A stretch of DNA of 26,892 bases from a virus (Duplodnaviria > Heunggongvirae > Uroviricota > Caudoviricetes). The position numbers and the translations under genes were made by a program. The notes beneath the pieces were generated by a model. That model saw only the letters and a list, made by a program, of their open reading frames with translations. It was not told the DNA's origin and did no database searches. The DNA lies in IMG/VR virus record IMGVR_UViG_2534682096_000007; one strand, given 5' to 3'. This document shows, one piece after another, positions 1 through 25,328 of this stretch (its first letter is position 1; every line of letters begins with the position of its first letter).

Positions 1-473
1 ATGTGTTCGCCGGCGTCATTGTGGGCTGGCGGGTCTCATCGTCGATGAAAACGACGTTCGTGCTGGATGCACTGGAGCAGGCGCTGTGGGCCCGTCGCCC
101 GTCGGGCACCATCCATCACTCAGATAAGGGGTCACAATATGTGTCGCTGGCATACACTCAGCGGCTTAAGGATGCAGAGTTGCTGGCGTCAACCGGCAGC
201 ACAGGCGACTCATATGACAACGCGATGGCGGAGAGCATCAACGGACTTTATAAAGCGGAGGTGATACATCGTAAGAGCTGGAAAAACCGCGCCGAAGTGG
301 AACTGGCCACACTGACGTGGGTGGACTGGTACAATAACCGACGGTTGCTGGAACGACTGGGTCATATCCCGCCGGCAGAAGCGGAAAAGGCATATTACGC
401 TTCCATCGGAAATGGTGGTCTGGCAGCCTGAGTTCACAGATAAAACACTCTCCCGGAAAACCGGGGCGGTTCA
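1..473 (+). mobile_element. IS629-like (IS3 family) insertion sequence, 3' portion only; 5' part lies outside the window
   Basis: Holds the C-terminal 142 codons of an IS3-family OrfB transposase (3-431). Immediately after the stop comes an inverted-repeat-like terminus GAGTTCACAGATAAAACACTCTCCCGGAAAACCGGGGCGGTTCA ending in CA at 473, as expected for IS3-family ends (TG...CA). Family assignment (IS629/IS1203) is from memory of the OrfB sequence. Confidence 0.8.
3..431 (+). CDS. IS3-family transposase OrfB, C-terminal fragment (DDE integrase core), truncated by window start
   Basis: Translation HHSDKGSQYVSLAYTQRLKDAELLASTGSTGDSYDNAMAESINGLYKAEVIHRKSWKN...WVDWYNNRRLLERLGHIPPAEAEKAYY is a typical IS3-family integrase-core C-terminus. 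The ORF is open to the window edge, with stop TGA at 429-431. Confidence 0.85.
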   Translation: MFAGVIVGWRVSSSMKTTFVLDALEQALWARRPSGTIHHSDKGSQYVSLAYTQRLKDAELLASTGSTGDSYDNAMAESINGLYKAEVIHRKSWKNRAEVELATLTWVDWYNNRRLLERLGHIPPAEAEKAYYASIGNGGLAA

Positions 474-595
474 AACTTTCCTACTATATTAGGAATAGTC
501 AATAACAGAAAAATTGTCAGTGATGAAGCCAGAAAGGCAATTTAGTCCGTGCACTACAAAGTTTATGTGTTAATGAATTAGTCAAGGGGGAGGAA

Positions 596-1555
596 ATGAT
601 AAAAAAACCTGTGATTGGGATCAGCGGTTGTTTGGGCGGTTCTGCTGTTCGTTTTGATGGTGGTCACAAAAGAGATGACTTTTTAATGGACAAATTAGTG
701 GAATGGGTAACATTCAGACCAGTATGTCCGGAAATGGCTATAGGGCTGCCAGTTCCGCGTCCTGCTCTACGACTTGTGCGCTCGAAGCAAGGAAATATAC
801 GGATGTGTTTCAGCCACGACCAGAATGAGGATGTGACAGAGAGAATGACAGAGTTTAGTCGTTCTTATATGGACAAATTAAAGGATGTATCGGGGTTTGT
901 GGTTTGTGCTAAATCTCCCAGCTGTGGCATGGAGCGCGTGCGTGTCTATGATGAAAATGGTAATCGAGGTCGTAAAGATGGAGTGGGACTATTTACGAGC
1001 ACTTTGATGGAAAAGTTTTCCTGGCTACCGGTTGAAGAGGATGGGCGATTACATGATCCAGTGCTTCGTGAGAATTTTATTGAAAGAGTTTTTGCTTTGC
1101 ATGAGCTCAATCACCTTTACAAGGAGAAATTATCAAGAAGAGAGTTATTAGCTTTTCATAGTCGTTATAAGCTTCAGTTGTTGGCGCATAGCCAGGCAGG
1201 CTATAAAGATATGGGACCATTTGTGGCTGCAATACACGAGTGGGCGGACCTTGAATCATACTTTGAGGTGTATCGTGATAATCTGATGGCGATTCTCAGA
1301 AAACCAGCATCACGTAAAAATCACACGAATGTGCTGATGCATATACAGGGGTATTTTAGTAATTACTTAAGTACACGCCAGCGTAAAGAGTTGAGCGAGG
1401 TTATACTTAACTATCGCTTTGGCACATTGCCTCTTCTTGCGCCGTTGACTCTGCTGAAGCATTATCTGGGTGAGTATCCTAATGATTACTTGCTTACACA
1501 GAATTACTTCGATCCCTATCCGGAAGAACTGGCTCTAAGACTGATGGTGAATTAA
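596..1555 (+). CDS. RudS-like protein: DUF523 (TudS-type Fe-S desulfidase) fused to DUF1722 (YbgA-like); putative tRNA 4-thiouridine desulfidase
   Basis: 319 aa; strong RBS GGGGGAGGAA ends 3 nt before ATG 596. N-terminal half carries the Cys pattern of DUF523/TudS (GISGCLGG..., FRPVCPEM, VVCAKSPSCG). C-terminal half carries YbgA/DUF1722-like motifs (HSRYKLQLLAHSQ, NHTNVLMHIQGYF, LPLLAPLTLLKHYLGEYPNDYL). AT-rich compared with the structural genes. Domain calls are from memory of the families. Confidence 0.6.
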   Translation: MIKKPVIGISGCLGGSAVRFDGGHKRDDFLMDKLVEWVTFRPVCPEMAIGLPVPRPALRLVRSKQGNIRMCFSHDQNEDVTERMTEFSRSYMDKLKDVSGFVVCAKSPSCGMERVRVYDENGNRGRKDGVGLFTSTLMEKFSWLPVEEDGRLHDPVLRENFIERVFALHELNHLYKEKLSRRELLAFHSRYKLQLLAHSQAGYKDMGPFVAAIHEWADLESYFEVYRDNLMAILRKPASRKNHTNVLMHIQGYFSNYLSTRQRKELSEVILNYRFGTLPLLAPLTLLKHYLGEYPNDYLLTQNYFDPYPEELALRLMVN

Positions 1556-1961
1556 CTGTATGCGATATCATCTGAAAGTGATGAGTTCCTGTATGCAGGA
1601 TATTTACAATCGTAAAAACTACGCTATGATGCTCATAGTGTCAGTTTTTATAAAAATCCTGTTCACGCTAAAGAAAACATTGAGATGCAATTTAATGTTG
1701 GTAAATATACCAGCCCCAAAAGATTTTATTCAATCTGTTTTTATATGAAGATATTTCAAGTGAATATAAAGAGCATATAATATTATTATTGCACGCAGCT
1801 ATTATAATATAACAGATTAGTTTAATGATTTGTTTTTTGTGAGTTAAATACATGGTTTTATAGTTGTGATGCAATGAGATTTTCCTTATTGTTGAACTGG
1901 CGAATGTTGATTTTCCACCTATACTTACCTGGTGTAACCCCAATGATATCAGGTGGATAAT

Positions 1962-2675
1962 ATGTCATACATATGTTCTATCATTTTGGTGTTGAACTCG
2001 TTTGGTGTCCGAATTGGTAAAGAAGATATTTTGTTTAAAAAAGGAAATGCTGTCCTCATTGAATACAATTTAAAAGATCTTTTTTCGTCAAATACAGATC
2101 ATCTAATGATCGTAGATGTTGAGGAGAAAACAGTTAATGATTTCTTTAAAAACTACACACTCTCACCTTTTTCTGTAAGAAGGTTTTATCCGTCATACTT
2201 GATAGTAGAATGTGAAGATTTTTCATTGTTAAAGAACTTGGTTGCATGCTTGAATTGTGATAGCAAAACCGTGGATGTAGTTAGAAATCAAATATCACTT
2301 GCATGTCTTGCTGTCTTATCTTCAGAGAAAATAGTGCAAAGTTTTTTGTTCGGAAGTCTTAATAGCTTAGGTTGTAAAGTTAAGGCTATTATTCACTCGG
2401 ATATCTCAGCGTCATGGAGACTTTGTGATATATCTTCAAGATTATATATGAGCGAGAGTTTGTTAAAAAGAAAATTAAAAGACGAAGGATTATCGTTTAG
2501 TAAATTAATTCTTGAAGAACGAATGATGATGGCGCAAAGATTATTAATCTACAGTAACCATACTGTCGGCAAGGTGGCGGGAATATGCGGGTATGACAAT
2601 GCATCATATTTTGTAAGTGTTTTTAGAGGATATTTTTGTGTGCCTCCGCACCAATATTTATCAAGATTTTCTTAG
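1962..2675 (+). CDS. AraC/XylS-family transcriptional regulator (Rns/PerA/ToxT-like, prophage-borne)
   Basis: C-terminal about 100 aa is a classic AraC-type double HTH (SWRLCDISSRLYMSESLLKRKLKDEGLSFSKLILEERMMMAQRLL...GKVAGICGYDNASYFVSVFRGYFCVPPHQY). N-terminal about 130 aa is an uncharacterised sensor/dimerisation domain. Very AT-rich gene. Start set at ATG 1962 (RBS AGGTGGA 1951-1957) rather than the GTG at 1953 used by the ORF track. Confidence 0.8.
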   Translation: MSYICSIILVLNSFGVRIGKEDILFKKGNAVLIEYNLKDLFSSNTDHLMIVDVEEKTVNDFFKNYTLSPFSVRRFYPSYLIVECEDFSLLKNLVACLNCDSKTVDVVRNQISLACLAVLSSEKIVQSFLFGSLNSLGCKVKAIIHSDISASWRLCDISSRLYMSESLLKRKLKDEGLSFSKLILEERMMMAQRLLIYSNHTVGKVAGICGYDNASYFVSVFRGYFCVPPHQYLSRFS

Positions 2676-2743
2676 AAGATATGATGTGATGGCATTTTAT
2701 AAAGTTATTTTTTGAAGTGTAAGATTATACGATATTTTTAGCT

Positions 2744-2777
2744 ACGCCAGAATAATTGCTGGCGTTTTTCTTTTTGA
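2744..2777 (+). terminator. rho-independent terminator after the AraC-family gene
   Basis: Perfect 7-bp stem ACGCCAG (2744-2750) / CTGGCGT (2759-2765), 8-nt loop, followed by TTTTTCTTTTT. Confidence 0.65.
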
Positions 2778-2865: not shown

Positions 2866-3081
2866 ATGAAATCCATGGATAAGTTAACAACGGGCATCGC
2901 CTACAGCACCTCTGCAGGCAGTGCTGGCTACTGGTTTTTACAGTTGCTCGATAAAGTCACGCCCTCACAGTGGGCGGCAATAGGTGTATTGGGTAGTCTG
3001 GTATTTGGCATGCTGACGTATCTGACAAATCTTTATTTCAAGATTAAAGAAGACAGGCGTAAGGCTGCGAGAGGAGAGTAA
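2866..3081 (+). CDS. class II holin / pinholin of the phage 21 S21 (EssQ/EssD) type, with dual-start motif
   Basis: 71 aa; RBS GGAGGTGAGG 2854-2863. Starts MKSMDK, i.e. Met1-Lys-x-Met4 dual start as in antiholin/holin pairs. Two hydrophobic segments ([19 protein letters not shown]; [21 protein letters not shown]) and charged C-terminus [13 protein letters not shown]. The ORF-track extension back to 2782 is rejected. Confidence 0.9.
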
Positions 3082-3085
3082 TCCA

Positions 3086-3393
3086 ATGACTCAAGACTAT
3101 GAACTGGTTGTGAAAGGAGTCCGTAATTTTGAGAATAAAGTTACGGTAACTGTAGCCTTACAGGACAAAGAACGCTTTGACGGTGAAATTTTTGGCCTGG
3201 ATGTCGCCATGGACCGTGTTGAAGGAGCTGCGCTGGAGTTTTATGAGGCAGCAGCCAGAATGAGCGTCCGGCAAGTCTTCCTGGAAGTAGCAGAAAAATT
3301 GTCAGAAAAAGTTGAGTCTTATCTGCAGCATCAGTACTCCTTTAAGATTGAAAATCCTGCCAATAAGCACGAGCGTCCTCATCATAAATATCT

Positions 3394-3397
<4 letters not shown>
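3086..3397 (+). CDS. ydfR: DUF1327 family protein (YdfR-like) within the lysis cassette
   Basis: 103 aa, placed between holin and endolysin exactly as ydfR sits between essQ and rrrQ in the K-12 Qin prophage. Its stop overlaps the endolysin start (ATGA at 3394-3397). Function unknown. Family call is by size and synteny from memory. Confidence 0.6.
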
Positions 3398-4421
<1,024 letters not shown>

Positions 4422-4785
4422 ATTAATATTAAATCGGATTATTTTTAGCGCTGAATGTGAAATTTAAATAAAAAGGACTCTTCCATGAGTCAAAATCCTT
4501 GAAATCTTAAGGGTAAGATAAAAGGTCATTAGACAGAATGACACGTTTTATTAATAAATAAAGCTATTGTTTCATTCGTGTGTTTTTCTTTACAAAAGTA
4601 ATCCTTGCTATGGTTGGTTAATCATGCGTTAATGGTGTTCTGGTTTGTTACAAAATTATCTGAAGCAGTCATTGTTATAATTTTATTATTTGTACCTCTT
4701 GAGATTTCCTTGTTGGTTTTTCTCTCTGATATTTTTTTTTCGGACCATTCTGCCCAAGGGCTAACTTCTTCAAAAGGTAATAATG
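4422..4785 (+). promoter_or_regulatory. long AT-rich leader and promoter region of the csp gene (cspA-family style 5' UTR)
   Basis: About 360 nt of AT-rich non-coding DNA directly upstream of a CspA-family gene; cspA-family genes are known to have long structured 5' UTRs. Promoter and cold-box elements are not mapped, so exact boundaries are unknown. Confidence 0.35.
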
Positions 4786-4998
4786 ATGTCTAACAAAATG
4801 ACTGGTTTAGTGAAATGGTTTAACCCTGAAAAAGGTTTTGGTTTCATCACGCCGAAAGATGGTAGCAAAGATGTGTTTGTGCATTTCTCAGCTATTCAGA
4901 GCAACGATTTCAAAACGTTAACTGAGAATCAGGAAGTCGAATTTGGTATTGAGAACGGACCTAAAGGCCCTGCAGCTGTTCATGTAGTGGCACTTTGA
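4786..4998 (+). CDS. CspA-family cold-shock protein (CspB/CspI-like, prophage-borne)
   Basis: 70 aa [42 protein letters not shown]... with RNP1-like KGFGFI and RNP2-like VFVHF motifs. AAGG 4774-4777 upstream. An extra in-frame ATG lies at 4783. Confidence 0.92.
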
Positions 4999-5202
4999 GG
5001 TAGAAAATATTACAAACCATATTCACTTTAGATGCCCGTGTTGCCATGGTTCTCAGTATAGAACATCATCTTTTGATGTTTCTGACAGAAATCCTTTCGG
5101 GGCAAAATGTATCTTTTGTAAATCAATGATGATTACATTTGATAATATTTCACAATACTTAAATGTTAGCCATCTGTCGTTAGATTTAAGAAAGTGAAAA
5201 TG

Positions 5203-5226
5203 AAGGCTCCTTCGGGAGCTTTTTTG
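5203..5226 (+). terminator. rho-independent terminator
   Basis: Stem GGCTCC (5205-5210) / GGAGC (5215-5219) with loop TTCG, followed by TTTTTT (5220-5225). Lies about 200 nt downstream of the csp stop. Confidence 0.55.
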
Positions 5227-5269
5227 CTTAGTGTCTAGTCGATGGATACTCACATATTACGGTAACATT

Positions 5270-5500
5270 ATGAAAAAAATAATAGTTTTTTTTAACTCTG
5301 AACCAGCAATGGTAGTGCCAGTGATGACCGGAGTTAACACCATCATGCGTGAATATCCAAATGGCGAAACAACACACCTCACTGTAATGGCTGCAGGGTT
5401 TCCATCTCTGACCGGAGATCATAAAGTCATTTATGTAGCAGCGGATCGACATGTAACTTCAGAAGAAATTCTGGAAGCAGCAATGAGACTCTTGAATTGA
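5270..5500 (+). CDS. small hypothetical protein, YmcE/YnfN-like by position (between csp and gns genes)
   Basis: 76 aa from ATG 5270 (MKKIIVFFNSEPAMVVPVMTGVNT...). Occupies the slot between a cold-shock gene and a gns gene, as in cspG-ymcE-gnsA and cspI-ynfN-gnsB of K-12. Weak RBS; family assignment by synteny only. Confidence 0.45.
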   Translation: MKKIIVFFNSEPAMVVPVMTGVNTIMREYPNGETTHLTVMAAGFPSLTGDHKVIYVAADRHVTSEEILEAAMRLLN

Positions 5501-5672
5501 TTTGATTCTAATGCATTGATAATAAATGATAATCATCTTTATCTGTTTGTGTGAAATTTAGACCGTCATATGTTGATTATTGCGATGTTTCATCTTATCT
5601 TTTATACGTTTGCTCCATATAATTGACACTACTGTGTACCAGGACAGTCATAACAGACTAAAAGAGGAAATG

Positions 5673-5846
5673 ATGAACATTGAAGAGTTAAAAACAAAAA
5701 CAGAAGCAGATATTTCTGAATATATAACAAAAAAAATCATTGAGCTTAAGAAAAAGACCGGGAAAGAAGTTACCTGTATCCAGTTTACTGCACGGGAAAA
5801 AATGACTGGTCTTGAAAGCTATGATATCAAGATTGATTTAATCTAG
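5673..5846 (+). CDS. gnsB: GnsA/GnsB-family protein
   Basis: 57 aa MNIEELKTKTEADISEYITKKIIELKKKTGKEVTCIQFTAREKMTGLESYDIKIDLI, matching the Gns family in length and sequence as recalled. RBS AAGAGGAAA 5661-5669. The ORF-track start at 5580 is rejected. Whether it is the A or B paralogue is uncertain. Confidence 0.8.
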   Translation: MNIEELKTKTEADISEYITKKIIELKKKTGKEVTCIQFTAREKMTGLESYDIKIDLI

Positions 5847-5908
5847 CATGTTTATAGTATTAGCATCAATTTCTCATCAGATGCTATTCAACAATACAAA
5901 TTACCCAT

Positions 5909-5934
5909 AAACCTCGTTTTTACGGGGTTTTGTT
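5909..5934 (+). terminator. possible rho-independent terminator after gns
   Basis: Stem ACCTCG (5911-5916) / CGGGGT (5923-5928, one G-U pair), loop TTTTTA, then TTTGTT. Weak U-tract. Confidence 0.35.
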
Positions 5935-6141
5935 ATATTTAAACATTACCGAATAGATATAAATCTCGATTGTCGATGGTATTGGTTGTGTGACAATACC
6001 TAGTCTTTCCGGTATGCCTGAAGAGAATACAAACGACAGATTATGTAAGGGAAACGCGCTGAAACTTTCACTCTTTCATGCTGAGTGATTTGACGTTATA
6101 TTTTTAGCCGCAAGTGAAGAGCAAACGAATGGAGCGACAAA

Positions 6142-6348
6142 ATGCATAAAGATCAATACACTGATGCCCCCTCCCAGGAGCAGGTTCGTGTAAAAACTAT
6201 GCTTAATAGCACCATTTCGATGGGTTACCCGGATGTTGTAATTGCATGTATAGAACATCAAGTATCTCTGGAAGCATTCAGGGCAATTGAGGCCGCGTTA
6301 GTAAAGCACGATAAGAATACGAAGGATTATTCCCTGGTGGTTGACTGA
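6142..6348 (+). CDS. hypothetical 68-aa protein
   Basis: GGAG at 6130-6133 sits 8 nt upstream of ATG 6142. Single ORF in an otherwise non-coding stretch between gns and the terminase genes. No family recognised. Confidence 0.4.
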
Positions 6349-6710
6349 TCACCATAACTGCTAACCATTCTGACCATTTCACAAGTGACAGAGTCAATAT
6401 CGTATTCTGTCACTGTAAGGCTAATACAGTACTGCAATTCAACTACAGCAATGCCTCGTATTTAGGTGAATTTACAATATCGTCCAGTTCGGATGCCGGC
6501 TGCATTTCTGAAGATAAGGCATTTCGGTTCGCGTATTTTCCCCTCATGCTCGTCAGTCCTGCGCGTAGTAAGAAACAGGACACTCACACTAATTTGTGTG
6601 GGCATGCTGTGATGTCCTTCTGAATTATCCCCATGCCATTATGTAACGCTCTGTTTCAGATGCTCGTCACGGTTGTCAGGCTGTCGGGTCCTCCCAGTGG
6701 GGGTCCCTGC

Positions 6711-21844: not shown

Positions 21845-25328
<3,484 letters not shown>

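Follow-up and report, generated by a model that had tools for sequence, protein, structure and literature searches.

We analysed a 26,892-nt stretch of DNA assigned to the Caudoviricetes (IMG/VR record IMGVR_UViG_2534682096_000007; "the window" below means this whole stretch), focusing on the block at positions 474–2777. The block carries two plus-strand genes, rudS, whose product has the domain composition of tRNA desulfidases, and araC, which encodes an AraC/XylS-family regulator. It begins where an insertion sequence (IS) element ends and is closed by an intrinsic terminator, beyond which lie the lysis genes (Table 1). The original prediction, made from the letters of the sequence, was that this is a cargo block between the Q and S genes of a lambdoid phage, and it was borne out by three IS-free relatives, in which Q lies upstream and the holin gene downstream.

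Table 1. Features in and around the block (positions refer to the window).
Feature	Position	Strand	Basis or remarks
Right end of IS3-family element, IS629/IS1203-related	1–473	+	3' part of transposase orfB (3–431); terminal inverted repeat ending ...GGTTCA at 473
rudS upstream region, remainder of the 192-bp blc-rudS divergent intergenic region	474–595	+	Near-invariant relative to three IS-free loci
rudS, 319-aa TudS(DUF523)-DUF1722 fusion, [4Fe-4S] tRNA 4-thiouridine desulfidase by homology	596–1555	+	Pfam, alignments
Promoter-like and hairpin element	1603–1651	+	TTTACA-16-TATGAT (1603–1630) overlapping a terminator-like hairpin and T-run (1621–1651)
araC leader	1912–1961	+	TTTCCACCTATACT (1912–1925, possibly -10-like TATACT); anti-Shine-Dalgarno CCACCT (1915–1920)
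araC-family regulator gene, 237 aa, GadW/YdeO/AppY/PatE subfamily	1962–2675 (open reading frame from 1953)	+	Pfam HTH_18, HTH_AraC
Intrinsic terminator closing the cassette	2744–2777	+	69 nt after araC stop, 89 nt before holin start
Lysis cassette, right border of the slot	2866–4421	+	Pfam Phage_holin_2_1, DUF1327, Phage_lysozyme, DUF2514
S21-type pinholin, dual Met1/Met4 start	2866–3081	+	Pfam Phage_holin_2_1
YdfR, DUF1327	3086–3397	+	Pfam; between pinholin and lysozyme genes
Lysozyme	3394–3927	+	Pfam Phage_lysozyme
Rz-like DUF2514 protein	3924–4421	+	Pfam DUF2514

The best IS-free match to the block was found in Escherichia coli WP8-S17-ESBL-05, in a Qin-type prophage adjoining dicB. The order of features there is Q, a plus-strand terminator (99 nt after Q), blc (minus strand), rudS, araC, a terminator and the holin gene essD, followed by ydfR, rrrQ, rzpQ, the genes from cspI to gnsB, and terminase. 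The arrangement of Q, blc on the minus strand, rudS, araC and holin gene recurs in two plaque-forming phages, 1H12 (genus Jouyvirus, infant gut) and IdasGreatGrand, and in the IS-free relatives the antiterminator gene Q sits ~870 bp upstream of rudS. Because this order is kept in the IS-free relatives, the block is placed in the Q-S cargo slot, and its natural unit is three genes, including the divergent lipocalin gene blc. The idea of a two-gene block is therefore right for the window and too narrow for the unit, whose third gene would lie beyond the IS element here.

A megablast search of positions 400–2900 against 5426 complete E. coli genomes gave 1008 genomes in which one place covered at least 80% of the query. 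Prophage-borne rudS was carried by 1136 of the 5426 genomes (~20%), including strain HS, and occupied several chromosomal positions. At a coverage of at least 80%, rudS was found in 1064 genomes; blc and rudS occurred together in 1047, and rudS and araC in one place in 1008, a linkage within E. coli of ~95% (1008/1064). The comparison across related prophages that had been proposed shows that the pair mostly travels together within E. coli and that other cargo fills the slot elsewhere: its place is taken by ynfS/cspF/cspB/ynfU in K-12 Qin and by nmpC in DLP12, and Sakai Sp5 has stx2AB, three tRNAs and further genes there. Among the 61 phage records matching the holin region, 12 had the block and 49 were without it. 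Mathieu et al. (2020, PMC6969025) listed the lipocalin gene blc among the morons of their infant-gut lambda phages, over half of which had it. BL21(DE3)-type genomes retain just a 147-bp 5' fragment of rudS, annotated as "2-thiouracil desulfurase family protein".

Base composition also sets the block apart. The GC content was 43.2% for rudS, 33.1% for araC and 36.8% for the whole block, against 54.5 ± 2–3% in same-length windows of the structural region (6400–26892), giving z scores of -4.0, -7.2 and -8.5, respectively. The sliding-window comparison thus confirmed that both genes are more AT-rich than the structural genes, with the caveat that the lysis genes are at 47.3% GC and rudS lies just slightly lower. 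The two genes are not core phage genes of typical GC content, and the locus is the Q-S junction; the cassette is accessory, being variable among related phages and atypical in base composition. Neither protein had a match in PADLOC at E ≤ 0.01, which agrees with the earlier view that neither gene is a known defence component and by which we ruled out a defence role.

The RudS-like desulfidase call proved correct: the protein is a full-length TudS-DUF1722 fusion with the conserved residues. Pfam assigned residues 7–149 to 2-thiour_desulf (PF04463, 5.8e-40) and residues 192–309 to DUF1722 (PF08349, 9.4e-40). When aligned to TudS (PDB 6z92), a weak match at the sequence level (E = 8e-4), Cys12, Cys44 and Cys110 fell on the cluster cysteines Cys10, Cys43 and Cys104, while Glu46 (in CPE) and Ser107 and Ser109 (in SPSCG) fell on catalytic residues; the Fe-S cysteines and the catalytic Glu/Ser of the window protein are intact. 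The same [4Fe-4S] cysteine numbering is listed for RudS_vir and RudS_ST, and in RudS_KT the catalytic residues are Glu51, Ser111 and Ser113 along with Arg60, with tRNA-binding residues in both domains (PMC11417400). Judged by offset rather than by an alignment to RudS_KT, Arg55 of the window protein stands where RudS_KT Arg60 is expected, and Arg19/Phe20/Asp21 and Ser239/Arg240 would be counterparts of the tRNA-binding residues Arg24/Tyr25/Asn26 and Ser243/Arg244.

The RudS family was defined by Jamontas et al. (NAR 2024, PMC11417400) as TudS-DUF1722 fusions that take 4-thiouridine (s4U) off tRNA. Overexpression of RudS_vir from phage 1H12 in E. coli lowered tRNA s4U, and overexpression of a RudS protein gave a smaller growth delay induced by ultraviolet A (UVA) (PMC11417400). 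The closest known counterpart of the window protein is this RudS_vir (H3V29_gp66), which has the same 319-aa length, domain composition and cluster cysteine positions, is 91.9% identical, and is encoded in the same order of Q, blc, rudS, araC and holin gene. The window copy differs from it as an allele (8% amino acid divergence) in a chromosomal Qin-type prophage with an IS upstream, its activity being assigned by homology. It is 97.5% identical to the IdasGreatGrand copy and 70–76% identical to the chromosomal 319-aa RudS of Citrobacter, Serratia, Klebsiella, Enterobacter and Pectobacterium; in Citrobacter, rudS is the last gene of a chromosomal operon. Purifying selection acts on rudS, for which the ratio of nonsynonymous to synonymous substitution rates (dN/dS) was 0.11–0.24 between the window and phage copies. 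The window protein would be expected to remove s4U from tRNA as its orthologues do, including RudS_vir, and to judge from this 92%-identical orthologue at an equal genomic position the RudS part of the cassette appears essentially characterised already. All three cassette proteins fall into PHROGs of function unknown (phrog_3275, phrog_1450 and phrog_2809).

Two relatives each share part of this architecture. TudS, a stand-alone DUF523 thiouracil desulfidase, has the N-terminal domain cysteines and catalytic Glu/Ser in common with RudS but no DUF1722 domain, and its substrates are free thiouracil or 4-thiouridine monophosphate (s4UMP), whereas the RudS family acts on tRNA. K-12 YbgA (b0707, encoded upstream of the photolyase gene phr) shares the DUF1722 half, at 49% identity over 152 aa; it aligns just to RudS residues 164–315, has no TudS domain, and was without effect on tRNA s4U in an assay (PMC11417400). 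In Salmonella enterica, a gene for a 73%-identical RudS stands beside a PF01171 (ATP_bind_3) gene, followed by a DUF1367 gene. We take the PF01171 gene to be ttcA (tRNA 2-thiocytidine synthetase) and the DUF1367 gene to be phage-derived; the locus would then presumably be the ttcA-side integration site, as used by Rac in K-12. If this is true, a tRNA de-thiolase has come to lie next to a tRNA thiolase through a prophage accident.

The second gene of the block had been described as a virulence-type AraC regulator. Membership of the AraC/XylS family stands, and the virulence type does not: the protein is of the GadW/YdeO/AppY/PatE acid-resistance type. Translation likely begins at ATG 1962 rather than at GTG 1953, since the ATG lies 5 nt past a Shine-Dalgarno sequence (SD; AGGTGG, 1951–1956) and RefSeq/PGAP gives the same start for a near-identical locus, whose AraC product is identical to that of the window. 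HTH_18 covers residues 161–237 of the 240-aa GTG-start open reading frame 1953–2675 (~158–234 counted from ATG 1962; 5e-15). The best NCBIfam model was YdeO, matched over nearly the full length, but its 110 bits stayed well short of the cut-off (348), as did the score of 86 for the GadX model (cut-off 500); with scores so far under the cut-offs, identity with YdeO or GadX was ruled out and the protein is a separate member of the subfamily. An assignment to the HilD/ToxT/Rns type was rejected as well, as homology is full-length only to the GadW/YdeO/AppY/PatE subfamily, while the HilD, HilC and GadX models or proteins match only the C-terminal, DNA-binding helix-turn-helix (HTH) part.

Within that subfamily, full-length identity was 33% to GadW, 29% to AppY and 29% to YdeO, with more partial matches to GadX and EnvY and barely any to YbcM. 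Identity to Sakai ECs_0287 was higher, 47% over all 237 residues with zero gaps. The family alignment showed an N-terminal CS(V/I)I...SF(D) motif common to the window protein and its relatives, a near-identical first recognition helix (SESLLKRKLK, with SxSLLKxKL invariant) and a second helix with CGY.S.SYF. A word-indexed protein search returned a narrow, E. coli-centred family that includes a 247-aa group, 46–47% identical to the window protein and 98% identical to ECs_0287. The latter is the sole gene of the AraC type in Sakai prophage Sp1, and Sp6 of the same strain yielded none. Sp1 corresponds to EDL933 CP-933H/OI-8, the island of PatE (Z0321) (review PMC10877973), and from this island content we infer that ECs_0287 is PatE. 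PatE, PsrB and AppY, all encoded on prophages, activate gadE/hdeAB (PMC10877973, PMC10057817). Like the window gene, the genes for PatE, PsrA/PsrB and AppY, regulators of glutamate decarboxylase (GAD) acid resistance, are prophage-borne and AT-rich; unlike patE, the window gene occupies the Q-S slot and not the far end of a prophage, and the proteins diverge by 53%. The window araC is also under purifying selection (dN/dS 0.21–0.24) and its product, which matches phrog_1450, adds an uncharacterised protein to a known subfamily of prophage regulators. An AraC of 37% identity is encoded in the Q-S slot of phage phiSTEC1575-Stx2k, directly upstream of tRNA genes and stx2AB, and an IraM-like anti-adaptor gene follows further along this slot.

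At the left border, the first base of the window is already inside an IS3-family element, of which positions 1–473 are the right-hand end. The open reading frame at 3–431 matched Pfam rve, rve_3 and rve_2 (integrase core) and NCBIfam transpos_IS3 and is the C-terminal part of the transposase. Homology to ~1000 IS-free E. coli loci starts exactly at 474 (25 of the 25 matches listed), and because these loci begin matching at 474 the IS end is placed at 473. The border itself was thus located correctly, and the name IS629 was not: positions 1–473 align without gaps to 838–1310 of the 1310-bp IS629/IS1203 in Sakai prophage Sp5 at 86.0% identity, which rules out IS629 at the isoform level and leaves an IS629-like element. 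Copies of this IS at 99% identity or more were found in 292 records only, and at low copy number. The exact IS/474 junction was absent from all 5426 complete E. coli genomes and from GTDB representatives, and was present in a single IMG/VR contig, which likewise ends within the IS. The insertion splits the 192 bp between blc and rudS at a point 122 bp ahead of the rudS ATG and, by alignment to the IS-free loci, 71 bp from the expected blc start.

The remaining intergenic sequence and the rudS-araC spacer hold several candidate regulatory elements. A strong SD, GGGGGAGG, precedes the rudS ATG. A perfect palindrome (TTCCTA-N6-TAGGAA) occupies 478–495, its first base 4 bp from the IS end, and overlaps TTTCCTACTATATT at 477–490, which starts 3 bp from the IS end; an IscR type-2 site at the palindrome was rejected because the spacing, judged by eye, does not fit. 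The element at 1603–1651 lies 48 nt past the rudS stop and is the best promoter-like match of the region (10/12). Its core, TTTACAATCGTAAAAACT...CTATGAT, is invariant across three diverged loci, and the element may be a terminator or attenuator of rudS, a distal araC promoter, or both. Small open reading frames in the 397-bp rudS-araC spacer (1560–1748 on the plus strand, 1692–1943 on the minus strand) were discarded as conserved genes, given large indels in 1H12 and IdasGreatGrand.

In the araC leader, the anti-SD CCACCT is able to pair with the SD AGGTGG. Both arms of this hairpin are invariant in 1H12 and IdasGreatGrand and the 30-nt loop has diverged, hence there is no covariation; the hairpin was predicted in two of the three sequences, with z scores of -0.5 to -1.1 relative to shuffles that are not significant. 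An SD-sequestering hairpin that gates araC translation may be considered a candidate lead only. RNA thermometers occur upstream of other AraC regulators. At gathering thresholds, Rfam reported no non-coding RNA within the block, and only a cspA thermoregulator outside it. The pattern TTTCC-N3-TATAYT occurred at two sites in 26.9 kb, 477–490 ahead of rudS and 1912–1925 ahead of araC, where 0.01 would be expected, a count that is not an independent test as the pattern was derived post hoc from these same two sites.

The terminator that closes the block had been predicted to be strong. It is present and conserved, and it is moderately strong, not exceptional: a 7-bp stem (5 G-C) with an 8-nt loop and the tail TTTTTCTTTTT, at -11.5 kcal/mol (z = -2.1 relative to shuffles). 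Its stem and T-run are invariant in the three loci, where the flanks are only 80–90% identical. Between this terminator and the holin gene, comparison of the three loci revealed no conserved promoter; a late promoter there was considered and dropped, the only candidate read by eye being a weak TGAATA-18-TAATGT partly in a segment deleted in 1H12. The lysis genes that follow are named essD, ydfR, rrrQ and rzpQ in the near-identical RefSeq locus. The lysozyme N-terminus, read from its translation, is possibly a signal-arrest-release (SAR) signal, and the YdfR (DUF1327) gene is shared with K-12 Qin.

A second AT-rich cargo block (35.7% GC) lies directly downstream of the lysis genes, at 4422–6400. 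It contains cspI with a full-length cspA-type 5' untranslated region thermoregulator (Rfam RF01766, 4627–5044, 109 bits), ymcF/ynfQ-like and ynfN genes (named from the near-identical RefSeq locus) and a GnsA/GnsB-family gene (5580–5846). With two such blocks present, 474–2777 is therefore not the sole candidate host-modulating region in the window. The suggestion that it is the most likely site of an unusual function held up less well in this respect, and also because that function turned out less unusual than hoped, RudS_vir having been assayed.

Other strains show further rearrangements at the cassette: IS1 interrupts rudS, and IS3 is found within or beside araC and blc. In strain EcPF16 (NZ_CP054224.1), a copy of IS629, itself split by a group II intron (ltrA), borders the sequence immediately ahead of rudS; an autotransporter pseudogene, ycgH, lies past the IS629, so that the left arm of the prophage is gone, and an IS3 separates rudS from araC. 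It seems that IS elements target the cassette repeatedly and that it marks a boundary of rearrangements. Further along the window, the tail-tip/host-specificity gene J (21845–25328) is split into three open reading frames (21845–23494, 23513–24418 and 24378–25328), of which the first two share a frame (in-frame stop) and the third is in another (frameshift), together holding the full GpJ domain set. This split suggests a defective prophage or sequencing errors.

We consider it probable that blc, rudS and araC form a lysogenic-conversion ("moron") cassette in the late-operon leader of a Qin/lambda-like prophage, in which RudS de-thiolates tRNA and AraC acts on the host. The block would be the right-hand two thirds of this blc(-)/rudS(+)/araC(+) unit, set between Q with its downstream terminator and the holin gene. 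It shares its insertion point, its accessory nature and its AT-richness with other Q-S cargo (stx, nmpC in DLP12, cspB/cspF in Qin), and differs from stx and nmpC in that it supplies no toxin or porin but an enzyme that removes a tRNA modification, together with a regulator and a lipocalin. RudS, as a [4Fe-4S] desulfidase, would convert s4U8 in tRNA to uridine and reduce the cell's main near-UV chromophore; less s4U would blunt the cross-linking of tRNA, the stringent response and the growth delay that UVA triggers. The desulfidase activity would be missing from most E. coli because their chromosomal ybgA keeps the DUF1722 half only. For AraC, an activator of the GadW/YdeO/AppY/PatE type, our best guess is that it feeds into the acid-resistance network of the host, most likely through the GadE/HdeAB regulon as PatE, PsrB and AppY do.

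From the architecture of the locus and the analogy with stx, we also infer how the cassette may be expressed. In a lysogen, transcripts from its weak or activator-dependent promoters would end at 2744–2777 and leave the lysis genes silent. The plus-strand terminator behind Q in the relatives matches the layout at lambda pR'/tR' and in Stx phages. Upon induction, Q-modified RNA polymerase would cross blc (in antisense), rudS, araC and the terminator into the holin gene, making both proteins late products, as for stx. In this strain, the IS629-like insertion 122 bp upstream would separate rudS from blc and from anything further upstream.

In the moron interpretation, rudS and araC are linked cargo and would not constitute an obligate two-component system. 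We regard them as co-resident rather than obligately paired because their GC content, their rates of synonymous substitution (dS) and the occurrences of each without the other differ. The GC content of the two genes is 10 points apart (43% and 33%). For the same phage pair, dS was 0.29 for rudS and 0.57 for araC, and in a second E. coli allele group rudS is ~98% and araC ~89% identical to the window. A 59%-identical AraC is encoded directly after a Q gene without rudS, mEp332 and ev099 have PatE-like copies on the far side of their tail genes, and the RudS homologues of Citrobacter and Salmonella have no AraC neighbour.

The same observations bear on a different interpretation, in which block and blc are a self-contained regulated module and AraC, as a regulator dedicated to rudS (and blc), would turn tRNA de-thiolation on when a signal arrives. 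The tight linkage (araC is adjacent in 1008 of the 1064 rudS genomes), the shared strand and the retention of both genes in diverged phages all fit such a module, as do the confinement of TTTCC-N3-TATAYT to the regions ahead of rudS and araC and the lack of a recognisable -35 in either promoter region, which is a feature of activator-dependent promoters. We nevertheless find a dedicated regulator unlikely, given that the motif statistic is circular and one arm is mutated in IdasGreatGrand, that GC content and, two-fold, synonymous divergence differ between the genes, that AraC relatives occupy Q-S slots without rudS, and that the closest characterised AraC relatives control host acid-resistance genes. 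Moreover, control of the chromosomal RudS genes is reported to lie with regulators of the MerR/LitR type and not with AraC (PMC11417400). In its most developed form, a phage-delivered, co-regulated stress module in which AraC drives rudS and blc through TTTCC-N3-TATAYT and its own translation is gated by the hairpin, this interpretation becomes still less likely. Were it true, tRNA de-thiolation would be a switchable lysogenic-conversion trait, with UVA, stringent and acid responses rewired in about one fifth of E. coli; alternatively, phage late-gene translation would be aided or a tRNA-directed defence evaded.

This last role could also be filled by RudS as an auxiliary of the lytic cycle, made late under Q antitermination, stripping s4U and so sparing late translation from stalling at UVA cross-links once sunlight or UV has set off induction, or allowing escape from tRNA-directed defence; lysogenic conversion would be a secondary effect in that case. 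The orientation of rudS and its place in the late-operon leader, past a plus-strand terminator beside Q as for stx, are what such an auxiliary would have; the cassette is kept in plaque-forming phages, induction by UV occurs in nature, and the UVA growth delay is eased when RudS is overexpressed. However, a protein made late can neither guard its own translation nor mend tRNA that is already cross-linked, PADLOC gave no match, and most lambdoid phages do without the cassette, including K-12 Qin and the 49 of 61 holin-region records noted above. We know of no defence system keyed to s4U, and an auxiliary of this kind seems improbable to us. That the block is passenger DNA without present function, decaying inside a cryptic prophage, is a view that the insertions point towards (in this strain the IS 122 bp ahead of rudS; elsewhere IS1 in rudS and IS3 in or near araC and blc), along with the fragment left in BL21-type strains and the split J gene of the window. 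It is very improbable, since both reading frames are intact here and in ~1000 genomes, dN/dS stays at 0.11–0.24 across 8–25% protein divergence, the catalytic residues are intact, the regulatory elements and terminator are invariant, and viable phages carry the cassette.

Several points weigh against the moron cassette that we favour. The window itself shows only the holin side of the slot, Q and blc being seen in relatives. A promoter scan of 474–595 found no convincing sigma-70 promoter upstream of rudS, and the candidate pR' by Q in the relatives (TTGCTG-17-TAACAT) falls under the scan threshold; the case for late read-through of the cassette, for which lambda and the Stx phages serve as the model, is a weak one. 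Although well expressed, RudS_vir acted on tRNA less than any other RudS in the published assay (PMC11417400). AraC and PatE share only 47% identity, and the equation of ECs_0287 with PatE itself goes by island content. Finally, the repeated IS hits on the cassette in other strains fit weak or conditional selection.

The block does not reveal a new kind of system. What it offers is an assignable function for an accessory cassette that is among the most common in the lambdoid prophages of E. coli. The literature is corrected as well: E. coli is said to be without RudS (PMC11417400), yet ~20% of complete genomes, including that of the commensal HS, have a full-length prophage copy. From this we would predict that E. 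coli strains differ, by virtue of their prophages, in tRNA s4U and UVA growth delay, and possibly in acid resistance.

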